Made by a program: the position numbers
Source of the DNA: Escherichia coli
GTDB taxonomy: Bacteria > Pseudomonadota > Gammaproteobacteria > Enterobacterales > Enterobacteriaceae
Length of the DNA stretch: 64,000 nt
NCBI RefSeq assembly: GCF_009931435.1
Contig: NZ_CP043414.1
Direction: 5' to 3' (one strand)
Part shown: positions 18,001-24,000 of the stretch, piece after piece
How positions within the stretch are numbered: position 1 is the first letter of the stretch
Layout of the letters: each line of letters opens with the position of its first letter

Positions 18001-21000
18001 GCAGGTACACGAACGTATTGCTGAACGTAATCACACGGCCAGTCCATCATCGCCGTTGGTATTACGCTGGTTGCGGGAACAACATGGAAAAGCAACAATA
18101 CGATGCCTGTTGCTGCTCAGCCAGACGAGCATTTGCCATCCGCGAGCCAGTGTCACAGTTGATGAACAATGTTCGCAAGTGGTGGATTTACTGCAACATA
18201 GCTGGCAGGTGATAAGTGCTGGCGGACAATGCCGGGTGGAAAGGTGTTTTCGGGTTGCCCGGGGTGATACATCCGGTCAGTATGTTGCGTTAAAAACAGT
18301 CGCATTGTCTCTGGGGTTACCGGTTGTGACCGCCATTACCCATCGTCCGGTACAGCGCTGTACATTGATTACAGCTCAGTGAATCAGCGCTTTCTGGCTT
18401 TTCGTCGGTCATTCAGCACCATTAGCCGGGCCTCTGCCTCTTTCTGTTCCTGTAGTGTCACTTCCCCGCACGGCAGCCCCTTCAGATCGTAACGGGCGCC
18501 ATCTGCCATTAACGCACATGAATAGTGCGGAGACTGCACATAAGACGCCACTGCCGCGTGTAATGTACCAGCGCCAAACGCCAGTTCTCTGATGGCGATA
18601 TCCTGTATCAGGTCGTCAGGTATCTCAACTTTAAGCGGTTGGGGTTTTTCCCGGTTGAATAACTCAGGCCAGAGTTCCACAAGACGATTAATACGCTTAC
18701 GGTTTTTACGCTGGCGTTTTGTCATATGCCGCCACGGTGTTTTTTCAGCAGAGCAGGGCTCTGTTTATCGTTCAACTGTGGTATCCGTTCCCTGGCCTTC
18801 ACGTTGTGTGCAGTGTTCGTTTTATCCTGCAGCGGCGTTGCCGGTGATTTACTGAAAATGCCCTGTGGTTTACGGTTAATGGTCAGCGTTACCATCAGTA
18901 TTGTTACCTCATGCTGTCAATGGAAGTAGTACTCCATCCAGAGCCTTGGCGACCCCGGGGCTGAAAACGAAACAATAACCCGCGCACAGTGCGAGGAGCC
19001 CGGGCGTGAAGCAATCAGCAGGTAATATTAATGGCAAGACCAGTAGGTTCTTTAAACAAACGAACAATATCAGCAAATACGACAACTCCCGGAGAGGTAA
19101 AAAGTTTTTCACTTGAGCACTTCTTAAAAAAATGGAGACGAACAAAAATGGGGCGACATACCTGGAAAGTATTGCTACCAGATGATGCTAAAAAGCAGAA
19201 ATAGTGTTCCAGGCCTGAAAGGGATGAGAATCAGTATCTGTGTGTATTTATAACATCTTCTTGAAGAGGCTGGAGATTGTTAGTCCATTAGTATAATCGA
19301 TATTCGTGTTCCTGCGAATATGCAGGCTACACCAGATATATGATTGCTACCGAATTTCATCAGTTTGATGAAATTACGCATCATACTGCGGGTTTTTCTC
19401 ATTAACATTAACGAAAGTGAATGGACTCAGACAAGTAGTGACCGGCGCAATTTCGCTAAGTATCAAATACAAAGAACGTTCTCTTACTTTCTGCGATGGC
19501 CTTTCCTTCGGAAAGGAAGTGACGATTAAGTACCGAAAAATGTGATACACATATTATTTTTATGGTGAATCACCTGATAGGATTTGCCATAAATGAATGA
19601 AAAGCTGAGTGTTAATAAATGAGTAAGAAGAAAATTCCTTTTGAAAATGAAGAGTTCATTACTTACCGGGCATTACTTCTGAGTATTGACTTTGTTAAAA
19701 AACTGGTTATAGAAATGTCTGATGAAGATTTAAATAAGGTTAAGGAAAACTTTGACATAGCTATTCAGCAACGTAATGAGCGAAAGGAAAATATGAAAGC
19801 TATCAAATCACTCATGGATGAACATGGTATATCTCTGGAAGATTTTTATTGTGAATTTGGCAAAAAATCACAGGCAGGCAGAAAAAGTGTGTCAGGAAGG
19901 CATAAATACGAGTATGACGATAACGGTAAAAGAATGTACTGGAATGGACAAGGACGTCGGCCTAAGGCCATAGCAGAGGCTATAAAAGCCGGAGGTTCTC
20001 TTGATGATTTTCTTATATCTCAGGAAGTATCATCTGGTCCTGATTATGAATAACAGCAATATATATTTTGATCTGTATTAATATCAAGAAATATATAGTA
20101 AACACTTCTCCGGAGTTGATATATTATCGGCAGGGAATGAAAATGCCTGACTTCATGCTAATATATGGCAATAAAGATAAATGAGTTATACTGTAGAGTT
20201 ATGAAATAACGATAGTGATAAGAGCCAGTCAGCGAGACTGATTGTTTTATCTGTACTGGCAGCAGGCAGTTTACCATGGCTTACTGCTTCAGCTTCTGAA
20301 TCTGTGTTGATGATATTTATCTGTTTATAAGGCAAGGCTTGTCTCTGTGAGTTGGTAATCTTTATCCCGGGATAGCTTTTCTCTGTATTTTTAGTATAGC
20401 CAGTAATCGATTACTCCTGTATGCGCAAAAATATAGCAACTCATCCATGGTAAACATGTCAGCTTTTACCTACATATAGATAAATTCATATTTCACGATA
20501 TACGACCCAATTTTATTAACACGAGCTGTTACCCATACACCTGTCATCCCCTGTTTATGGTGACTGCGCGGGAACTCTTTATTTGTACAAAGTTGTATCC
20601 ATCTGGAAGTGTTTTGATCTTTCAACCAGAGTCCCGCTTCACAATGTCCATACTTTCCTCTTGATGGTCCCGGAAAAACAACATCATATTCAGATTCATA
20701 GCTAATAACCTTATCCGGAAAAAGATAAACACAGACATCGTAACAGTTCAGACTCAGTATAAATCCAAGACAAAATCCCCCCGTGAATGCATTTAATAAA
20801 TACTTTAATGTTCTGTTAAAGGTGCGGATATAAAATGCATAAATAAAAGAAAGAGAACCGGTGGTTATACCGGTGCAAAAATATGTTGTCCATTCAGGTA
20901 CCGTATTTTGTAAAACAGTATAATGAGATATGGCGGATGCCCACAACATATACCAGCACAAACCACCTGCAATAAGATATGTTATTGCTGTGGAAAACCA

Positions 21001-24000
21001 TTTCCTGTATTTATTTTCAGGGTGATTGTTTTTGCCCATCAACGCATTTCCAGAATATTTAAAAATAACCTGTCACCGAAACAGAATAAAGGCGCAATAA
21101 CCATAGCGGGAAAATATGCGCCTCTGGTAATCGACAGTGTTACTTCAGACAGTGAGTTTCCCATTCCTTGACTGCAAATGTATCCATCATACCTGAAATA
21201 TAGTCAACCACTGCTCGTTTTTTGCTGATTTTAAATATATAGGAATCTGGTTGGGGTAAGGTGAATTTAAGTTCAGGAGGCAGAAATTTATAATTCTCTC
21301 CTTCATTGTAAAAGTCATATAAATCCCTGATTATTTTATTTCCCCTGAACTCATAGGTGAGGATATTACGTTTTCGCATGATGACTTTAAAGAGAAGTTT
21401 TTTGAGCCCTTCGGATAACGCATTCAGTTTCCCGAATCCCAGTTCCTGAAAACCATTCAGGTTCGTTACTACAGAAATATCTGCAACGAGGCGATTGACA
21501 ATATTTGAAGTTAACTCCTTGCGGAATATGATGGCAAATTCTTCTGAGGTTTTCAGTAAGTTAGCCTGAAAAGCGGTGTTTCTCGACTGAGTAACGATTT
21601 CCCTGAACTGTTCCCTCGCTCCCCGGAATTCGTCAGAAATCTGAAACTCATATTCAATATCTTCAATCGTGACCATGTTCCTGCTAAGGGCATCTTCCAG
21701 GTCATGCGCGGCATAGGCAATCTCATCCGCGAGATCCATTATCTGCGCATCAATCGTTTTCTCTCCGGGATTCAGATCGAGCTGATTTTCAGCAAGCAGG
21801 TTAATGTAAAAATAGTAATCATCATCATAAATGAACTTGCCGGCAGTAGCTGCAGCGCGGGGGATGGGATACTTAACAACCGAAAGTAAACTACGGTGAG
21901 TCAGATTTAATCCGTTGCAGTATGAAAATTTCTTCTCCAGTTTTCTCAGGATACGTAGCGCCTGTGCATTGCCTTCATAGCCGCCGATTTCTTCAGACAG
22001 TTCATTAAGTAGTTTTTCACCGGAATGACCGAAAGGAGGATTTCCGATGTCATGCGCCAGAGCTGCCAGTTCAACCACCACCGGGTTAACCAGTTTGAGG
22101 TCTGACGCGATACTTCGGGCGATCTGAGCAACCTCAAGACTGTGCGTTAATCTGTTTCTGTTGAATTTTTCAGGATCAATTTCAAAAAGTTGCATCTTTC
22201 CCTGCAGCCTGCGAAATGATGATGAATACAGAATACGCGCATAATCCCGTTGATAATTATCCCGGCTTCTTGTTTCACCATCGGGGGACGGGTGCTCTCT
22301 GGTATCAGCAAGCGCACTGATAAGTTTTTGTTCCTGCTCTTGCGCAAATTCTTTTAATTCATTGCAGTACATATTTCTTCCTTTCTGGAGCATGTTACCA
22401 AATCAGAATACCGGATGAACAAAACTGGTGGCTACATCCTGTAGGGATTATGTATTAGTAAGCTCTGGCCATTAGTGCCATTTCAGGTTATGTGATCCTA
22501 CTCACGTAATATGGACACAGGCCTAAGTGAGGTTCTGGTTTTCAAATTGTTCCGGACTGAGGCCGCCACACCAACTGTGCCGCCGCCACCGATTGTAATC
22601 ACATTCGATATAATTAAACACCGTTGCCCGCATTATTTCCCGGCTGATAAAGTGTTCTCCATGGATACATTCCACTTTCAGCGAATGAAAGAAGCTTTCC
22701 ACGCAGGCATTATCGTAGCAGCAACCTTTTGCGCTCATACTTCCACGCAGATTATGCCGCTTCAGTTGCGCCTGATAATCTGCTGAACAGTACTGGCCTC
22801 CACGGTCCGTGTGAACGATAACGTTCCGGGGCCTCTTACGCCGCCACAGCGCCATCTGCAGGGCATCGCAGGCCAGTTGCGCCGTCATGCGTGGCGACAT
22901 TGACCAGCCAATAACGGCACGTGACCACAGGTCAATGACCACTGCCAGATACAGCCAGCCTTCATCTGTACGTAAGTACGTGATGTCTCCTGCCCACTTC
23001 TGGTTCGGGCCACTGGCGTAAAAATCCTGCTCCAACAGATTTTCTGACACAGGCAGGCCGTGTGCGCGGTAGCTGACCGGGCTGAACTTCCGGGAGGCCT
23101 TTGCCCTCAGTCCCTGACGGAGCAGGCTTGCCGCCACGGTTTTTACGTTAAAGGGGTAACCCTGAGCACGCAGTTCATCCGTCAGGCGTGGGGCACCGTA
23201 ACGCTGTTTTGACCGGGTAAAAGCCGCGAGGACAACGCTGTCGCAGTGTTGGCGGAACTGCTGACGCGTGCTTATCCTTGTCCGCCGCTGACACCACGTA
23301 TACCAGCCGCTGCGGGCCACCCGGAGCACGCGGCACATTGCTTTGATGCTGAACTCAGCCTGATGTTTTTCAATAAAGACATACTTCATTTCAGACGATT
23401 CGCAAAGTATGTCGCGGCCTTTTGGAGGATAGCCAGTTCCTCTGCCTGCTCCGCCAGTTGCCGCTTCAGGCGGGCATTTTCAGCGGCCAGTTCACTTTCA
23501 CGATCTGACGAACTCATTTGTTGCTGCAGTTTGCTGCGCCACGCATAGAGCTGTGATTCATACAGGCTGAGTTCACGGGCTGCGGCAGCAACACCGATGC
23601 GTTCAGCAAGTTTCAGGGCTTCACTGAGAAATTCAGGCGAATGCTGTTTACGGGGTTTTTACTGGTTGATACTGTTTTTGTCATGTGAGTCACCTCTGAC
23701 TGAGAGTTTACTCACTTAGCCGCGTGTCCACTATTGCTGGGTAAGATCAAGTCTTACTTACCCTGTGAACCATGTTGATATTGATACTATATTGACTATA
23801 TGCCATACAGGTGGTAATGATTAGTTACTACCATACAGGAAAAGGTAGAAAATGACTCTTTTGGTAACGGCTGAGTGTGTTGACGATCTGATAAACGATG
23901 TTCATCAAGCTATCCTAGCGGATGGACTCAGTAACGATCCTACAAAAGGATCAACTCTAGAGATTCTTGGTGCCTATCTTGTCCTTACCGACCCCCGCCG

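Follow-up and report, generated by a model that had tools for sequence, protein, structure and literature searches.

A dGTPase-family gene on an Escherichia coli defence island and its membrane-protein neighbour: probably two independent genes rather than a two-component system

Does a hydrolase of the deoxyguanosine triphosphate triphosphohydrolase (dGTPase) family on an island of Escherichia coli act alone, or does it act together with the small membrane protein encoded next to it? The question arises from a stretch of 64,000 nucleotides of contig NZ_CP043414.1 (assembly GCF_009931435.1), hereafter called the window, in which an open reading frame (ORF) for the dGTPase is followed on the same strand by an ORF for the membrane protein. 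The original prediction for this locus offered two explanations for the arrangement, a two-component variant of the known single-gene dGTPase defence or an unrelated neighbour. Based on the analyses reported here, we conclude that the locus probably holds two functionally independent genes, a stand-alone dGTPase and an unrelated membrane neighbour, linked solely by their recent shared past on a single E. coli island backbone.

Both ORFs are located on the minus strand as predicted, at 21140..22393 (417 aa) and 20470..21042 (190 aa), and are separated by 97 bp. The predicted length of 417 aa corresponds to the maximal form of the dGTPase ORF, which begins at an in-frame upstream ATG at 22393. 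An ORF of that length exists, but a start at M8 is favoured. The ATG at 22372, seven codons inside the ORF, is preceded by a strong Shine-Dalgarno sequence (AAGGAAG), the N-termini of relatives and of the solved structure PDB 9vwa start at an 'MY' matching M8, and the RefSeq annotation gives 410 aa. For these reasons, translation most likely starts at ATG 22372 and yields a dGTPase of 410 aa (21140..22372, minus strand). For the membrane ORF, ATG 21039 is the most likely start, which yields a protein of 189 aa (20470..21039, minus strand) and a gap of 100 bp to the dGTPase gene. The G + C contents of the dGTPase gene (0.425) and the membrane gene (0.372) are lower than that of the whole window (0.498), which agrees with the AT-rich DNA noted before.

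The dGTPase features the Pfam domains HD (PF01966, E 3.6e-14) and HD_assoc (PF13286, E 2.4e-14). Its score of 317.3 bits places it in TIGR01353 (dGTP_triPase, cut-off 152.35), and it matches the PADLOC dGTPase model PDLC02374 with an E value of 1.4e-109, residues 21-413 falling on profile positions 19-369 of 395. These results support the earlier assignment as a Dgt-type HD hydrolase, a type of protein that is listed among defence genes. The catalytic centre was judged by the metal-binding H...HD...D residues and the catalytic dyad, which are H69, H117-D118, D268/D242 and H126/E129 in Dgt/CloA numbering. When aligned with 9vwa and with Sp-dGTPase (PDB 9P8W), the island protein retains the metal ligands H84 (in RLTH84), H114-D115 and D220/D223 of a DLAD motif, as well as the His/Glu dyad H123/E126 (in FGHSGE). 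The alignments thus show an intact HD catalytic centre.

Judged by its sequence, the island dGTPase is not the housekeeping dgt of E. coli, a possibility that the original prediction had named as fatal to its reading. It scores 155.3 bits with the housekeeping Dgt equivalog model PRK04926, below the cut-off of 405, and E. coli Dgt (PDB 4x9e) aligns with it over residues 39-125 only (E 1.7e-21). Moreover, the locus is found in only 345 of 5,426 complete E. coli genomes (6%), on the chromosome every time.

Evidence on the relationship of the two genes comes from other lineages. In every non-E. coli setting examined, relatives of the dGTPase with 64-83% identity were solitary. They are located beside a prophage integrase in Proteus, beside a NACHT gene on a Klebsiella island, within a lambdoid prophage of Morganella, after QueC/PfkB genes in Cronobacter (66% identity; locus L108, 2405-6239) and, in a metagenomic enterobacterium, with the hyc operon on one side and an HNH gene on the other. 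An unannotated relative of 408 aa (64% identity) lies between an xis/AlpA-like gene and int in Stx2c prophages (locus L120, 4001-5227, LC727889), and further relatives are carried by ~78 Klebsiella/Raoultella plasmids, most of them conjugative. With solitary occurrences on islands, prophages and conjugative plasmids, the dGTPase gene is horizontally mobile. A tblastn search for a homologue of the membrane protein yielded no match in these loci (five chromosomal or prophage lineages, the Stx2c phages and the ~78 plasmids), nor at 80 remoter dGTPase loci. The remoter loci, of which the closest encodes a protein with 54% identity, were collected in a single-protein contig scan, mostly via the motif HDIGNPPF, and were used for the membrane gene as a negative control only.

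The search from the side of the membrane gene gave the same result. Eight neighbourhoods of the membrane family were inspected, in Aeromonas, Pseudomonas (two settings), Pectobacterium, Pantoea, Enterobacter, Erwinia and a metagenome; the closest relative outside E. coli, with 74% identity, is of metagenomic origin. The gene is solitary in all eight, usually amid housekeeping genes at a site that differs by genus, and some members of the family are found at integrase or prophage borders. No dGTPase was detected by tblastn within 5-6 kb of the membrane gene in the eight contexts, and two Pantoea plasmids with a membrane relative showed no co-occurrence with a dGTPase. Adjacency of the two genes is therefore not conserved across unrelated lineages. 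The co-occurrence of the membrane gene with island-type dGTPases, which the original prediction had proposed as a check, ends at the E. coli island in the lineages examined. This speaks against a two-component variant, and the alternative of an unrelated neighbour is favoured by the solitary relatives of both genes.

Within E. coli, the two genes are not jointly retained either. The full-length dGTPase gene is present in 319 genomes and the full-length membrane gene in 203. In ~131 genomes the membrane gene is reduced to its first ~98 codons, its 3' half being deleted and the remainder joined to a papA fragment; this variant is widespread over hosts and countries. The annotation of these genomes shows an intact dGTPase, and at least 116 genomes with this combination were counted. 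Such genomes weigh against a two-component system, in which the membrane protein would share an operon with the dGTPase and act together with it, by sensing phage entry at the envelope, by regulation or as a further effector. Such a system would fit the position of the genes on the same strand, 97-100 bp apart and without a strong terminator between them, their co-occurrence in 187 E. coli genomes within one conserved block, and the precedent of partnered deoxynucleoside triphosphate (dNTP) hydrolases set by CloA/CloB of Clover. However, searches from either gene revealed no co-occurrence beyond E. coli island DNA of ~95-100% identity, and the membrane family occurs mostly amid housekeeping genes, so that we regard a two-component variant as very improbable. 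The truncated membrane gene was also found on an E. coli plasmid (NZ_OP290546.1, 25939-27558) together with a dGTPase of 99.3% identity, which indicates that the truncated variant of the block has moved onto a plasmid as well.

The membrane protein itself was described in the original prediction as having four transmembrane (TM) helices. Hydropathy analysis and an AlphaFold2 model (pLDDT 88.6) correct this to three helices, at residues 7-38, 49-71 and 78-106, which are followed by a beta-rich domain of ~80 residues. According to the positive-inside rule, the N-terminus and the second loop are probably cytoplasmic and the beta domain periplasmic; a pair of cysteines is consistent with the latter. 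These two residues (C133 and C151) are invariant in the family alignment and part of the C-terminal motif FPGPxxGKxGHCEAG...LC...VN.xGxY. No match was obtained in Pfam, NCBIfam or PADLOC (the latter at E<=10), and no sequence match in the PDB. We found 57 homologues with 43-97% identity in Enterobacterales, Pseudomonas and Aeromonas. Among 1.84 billion proteins, the family has 61 cluster representatives, all ~180-240 aa in length and of the same architecture. The protein is thus a predicted envelope protein of a narrowly distributed, uncharacterised small family.

A Foldseek search of AFDB50 with the model returned the protein's own family. At rank 15, it listed a member of that family with 216 aa (32% identity, TM-score 0.88) with the UniProt name 'SMODS-associating 2TM beta-strand rich effector domain-containing protein', which raises the question whether the membrane protein is a defence-type effector distantly akin to S-2TMbeta proteins (Cap15 of CBASS, OptE of Panoptes), its adjacency to the dGTPase reflecting the clustering of defence genes. 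In line with the S-2TMbeta architecture defined in PMC12657218, TM helices and a beta-rich C-terminal domain, it likewise carries a TM segment at its N-terminus, joined to a small beta-rich domain at its C-terminus, and the placement of some family members at integrase or prophage borders would suit such an effector. On the other hand, it has three TM helices instead of the two of Cap15/OptE, and its beta domain is predicted to be periplasmic. The S-2TMbeta Pfam models match 0 of 56 family members, the sequence searches of PADLOC and the PDB mentioned above were negative, and neither a CD-NTase nor an mCpol cyclase gene was found in the eight membrane-family neighbourhoods or in the window. 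A relationship to these effectors is hence improbable.

Several points weigh against the reading of a stand-alone defensive dGTPase beside an unrelated gene. The truncated variant of the membrane gene comprises one junction and one allele, which points to a single deletion event and not to repeated independent loss. In addition, co-transcription of the two genes is possible, because they lie on the same strand with a gap of 97-100 bp and without a strong terminator or an obvious internal promoter. The spacer (21043..21139, minus strand) contains a hairpin in which GGCGCA (21117-21122) pairs with UGCGCC (21091-21096) across a loop of 20 nt, followed by a U-rich run (21079-21090). Its fold was calculated at -25.7 kcal/mol (z = -1.9), and the hairpin may act as a weak terminator. 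Scans for consensus promoters and terminators gave counts at chance level, with the hairpin not called and no clear promoter detected. The possible co-transcription and the tracing of the membrane-gene loss to a single deletion are the reasons why we retain a further reading, in which the three-TM protein was recruited, specifically in the E. coli island lineage, as an accessory of the dGTPase. It would either sense the entry of phage DNA at the envelope and thereby gate dNTP hydrolysis, or serve as an additional effector in the membrane. If true, this would be the first membrane-coupled dNTP-depletion system, yet we consider it extremely improbable.

The remaining points of this kind concern the defensive role of the dGTPase. 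Single-gene anti-phage dGTPases were described by Tal et al. (2021/2022), including Sp-dGTPase of Shewanella putrefaciens CN-32 (PDB 9P8W); defensive members are situated within or near type I restriction-modification (R-M) operons. In the same study, homologues with at least 45% identity to Sp-dGTPase were enriched beside defence systems, and below this value only ~10% of the homologues adjoin defence genes. The island dGTPase shares 129 of 363 aligned columns with Sp-dGTPase (35.5%, or 31.5% of the query), although the N-terminal ~115 residues alone reach 44-49%. The overall identity of ~32-36% thus falls below the level of 45%. The score of the island protein with the NCBIfam model NF041026 ('antiphage_dGTPase') is 284.7 bits in two stretches, below the cut-off of 400. 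The E. coli dGTPase validated by Tal et al., from strain G177 (455 aa, 54.8% identity to Sp-dGTPase), is a different protein of a different clade. For the short clade to which the island dGTPase belongs, the anti-phage role is one that we infer, and the searched literature yielded no experiment on this clade.

These same observations, namely the low identity to Sp-dGTPase, the score under the anti-phage cut-off and the absence of experiments from the searched literature, would fit a dGTPase that is not a defence gene and instead controls the dNTP pool of the element or host, for instance in replication timing or mutation rate, as has been proposed for distant 'housekeeping' homologues. We consider this unlikely, albeit worth keeping in mind, as the gene occurs sporadically, in 6% of the E. 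coli genomes, and recurs on prophages, plasmids and islands beside R-M, NACHT, HNH and PD-Lambda-2-like genes, and as the PADLOC dGTPase model matches its product strongly and over the full length. As a stand-alone defence gene, the dGTPase would, by analogy, act like the described single-gene systems. Upon phage infection, dGTP and possibly other dNTPs would be hydrolysed to deoxynucleoside and triphosphate, which would deprive the replicating phage DNA of its building blocks. The enzyme would need no partner protein, and the membrane protein, whose family is normally encoded by a solitary chromosomal gene, would play no part in dGTPase function.

The dGTPase gene sits in a mobile defence island, as a type I R-M system, an AriA/NsnB-like ATPase and a PD-Lambda-2_B-like gene are located within ~15 kb. 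The earlier description as island DNA is therefore supported, and the locus combines a CP4-type backbone with variable content. Backbone genes on the island include CbtA/YeeU, antirestriction, DUF932, YagK/YfjJ, an AlpA-like regulator, ProQ/FinO and an H-NS paralogue. The 2.2-kb segment matches E. coli strain RX24 with 100% identity, and in this strain the island is placed between setC/yicL and tRNA-Sec. ARAGORN found no tRNA in the window, and the assignment to selC rests on the setC/yicL flanks in RX24. The H-NS/StpA paralogue is encoded at 19619..20053 on the plus strand (NCBIfam StpA, E 1.6e-17, under the cut-off). Its gene, the membrane gene and the dGTPase gene make up a block that is common to the E. 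coli island variants RX24, MINF_1D and A36.

Upstream of the dGTPase gene, the window contains, in this order, an IS3 element, a thymidylate-synthase-like gene, an aGPT-Pplase3 gene, a PD-Lambda-2_B-like gene, a MazG-like gene, the type I R-M operon and an ABC-ATPase gene. The frameshifted IS3-family transposase gene lies just upstream of the dGTPase gene (22523..23684, minus strand; identified by the ORF 22523..23389 and the RefSeq annotation of RX24), and E. coli islands without IS3 depart from the window sequence at ~22493. In MINF_1D and A36, the block is followed by cdiB/cdiA (contact-dependent inhibition) in place of IS3 and the thymidylate-synthase-like gene (cdiB/cdiA-bearing variants at locus L118, 9465-15085, and locus L119, 9476-16193). 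The PD-Lambda-2_B-like gene encodes a protein of 360 aa with a helix-turn-helix and an ImmA/IrrE-like peptidase (25776-26858, minus strand; PD-Lambda-2_B, E 3.3e-30, with weaker matches to RmrA and CapP). The type I R-M operon with its R, M and S genes (29010-35287, plus strand) is within about 7 kb of the dGTPase gene, and an ABC-ATPase of 540 aa resembling AriA/NsnB/PDC-M55A is encoded directly behind hsdS (35296-36918, plus strand).

Some further features of these neighbours were observed. The PD-Lambda-2_B-like gene is preceded by an overlapping ORF for 108 aa without a match (25776-27181 for both, minus strand), and the two may represent a partial or variant PD-Lambda-2. Between this gene and the R-M operon lies a gene for a small protein that is MazG-like by its RefSeq name (27283-27588, plus strand), without a match in PADLOC or NCBIfam. 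The ABC-ATPase gene is followed by a gene for a 313-aa protein without a match, and in the region 29010-37814 (plus strand) these two genes have the appearance of a defence pair inserted after hsdS. At 23852-25773 (plus strand), the thymidylate-synthase-like gene overlaps the aGPT-Pplase3 (amino-acid:DNA-transferase) gene by 4 bp. The latter matches PF18746 (E 5.5e-90) and PF18724 (E 1.1e-58), the former is far under the cut-off of every NCBIfam thymidylate synthase model, and neither protein matches PADLOC. They represent a thymidine-hypermodification-type pair known from phages, here in a chromosomal defence island. A nucleotide-metabolism module consisting of the dGTPase, the thymidylate-synthase-like, the aGPT-Pplase3 and the MazG-like genes was considered and rejected, because IS3 intervenes, cdiB/cdiA take this place in other islands and no relative elsewhere has these neighbours.

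In Cronobacter, the three genes in front of the dGTPase relative encode a 101-aa protein, a fusion of PfkB with a nucleoside 2-deoxyribosyltransferase and a QueC-like protein, and could be another nucleotide-targeting defence cluster. Elsewhere in the window, an ORF at 12927-14057 (plus strand) encodes 376 aa with a Cys-rich N-terminus, has a G + C content of 0.35 and gave no match in PADLOC or NCBIfam. The region ~41650-64000 is GC-rich (0.60-0.68) and Tn21-like, with mer, Tn3-family, IS1326 and TnsB-like genes. The same sequence, at 100% identity, is present in E. coli NZ_OZ546938.1 and absent from RX24, despite the perfect match of the dGTPase segment in that strain.

Taken together, the apparent membrane partner of the dGTPase would owe its position to the common descent of a single island block and not to a functional link. 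The membrane protein represents a small orphan family and is of minor interest. The dGTPase can already be called by standard tools as a known single-gene system. Its short (~410 aa) mobile clade lies outside the validated anti-phage clade, and an assay of a single member would show how far the 'dGTPase' defence annotation, widely assigned by PADLOC-type tools, reaches.

Comparison with known systems delineates the island dGTPase as follows. E. coli Dgt (PDB 4x9e/6oiy, PRK04926) belongs to the same superfamily and shares the catalytic motif, but is the product of a core gene and 505 aa in length. Clover, which combines the dGTPase CloA with CloB, a cytoplasmic Pol-beta-type nucleotidyltransferase that makes p3diT, demonstrates that partnered dGTPase systems exist. 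The E. coli locus is similar in that a dNTP hydrolase is genetically linked to a second gene. However, CloA matches the island dGTPase weakly and partially (E ~3e-25, residues 30-264), and no CloB-like Pol-beta-type nucleotidyltransferase was annotated or detected beside the latter, the neighbours being IS3 upstream and the membrane ORF downstream. The closest solved relative is a 'Deoxyguanosinetriphosphate triphosphohydrolase-like protein' of 402 aa (PDB 9vwa/9vwc/9vwg), which matches over the full length with ~52-55% identity (E 1.9e-114). It agrees with the island dGTPase in its short architecture and its N-terminus, and in 9vwc the catalytic His equivalent to H123 is replaced by Ala. A literature search on the source of 9vwa returned nothing relevant, and its nearest relatives among the matches are metagenome proteins. 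With the single-gene anti-phage dGTPases, finally, the island protein shares the HD dNTP triphosphohydrolase fold family, the H..HD..D metal site and the H/E dyad, and it resembles them as a solitary gene near type I R-M and other defence genes that is recognised by PADLOC, while with 410 aa it is shorter than these enzymes of 452-463 aa.

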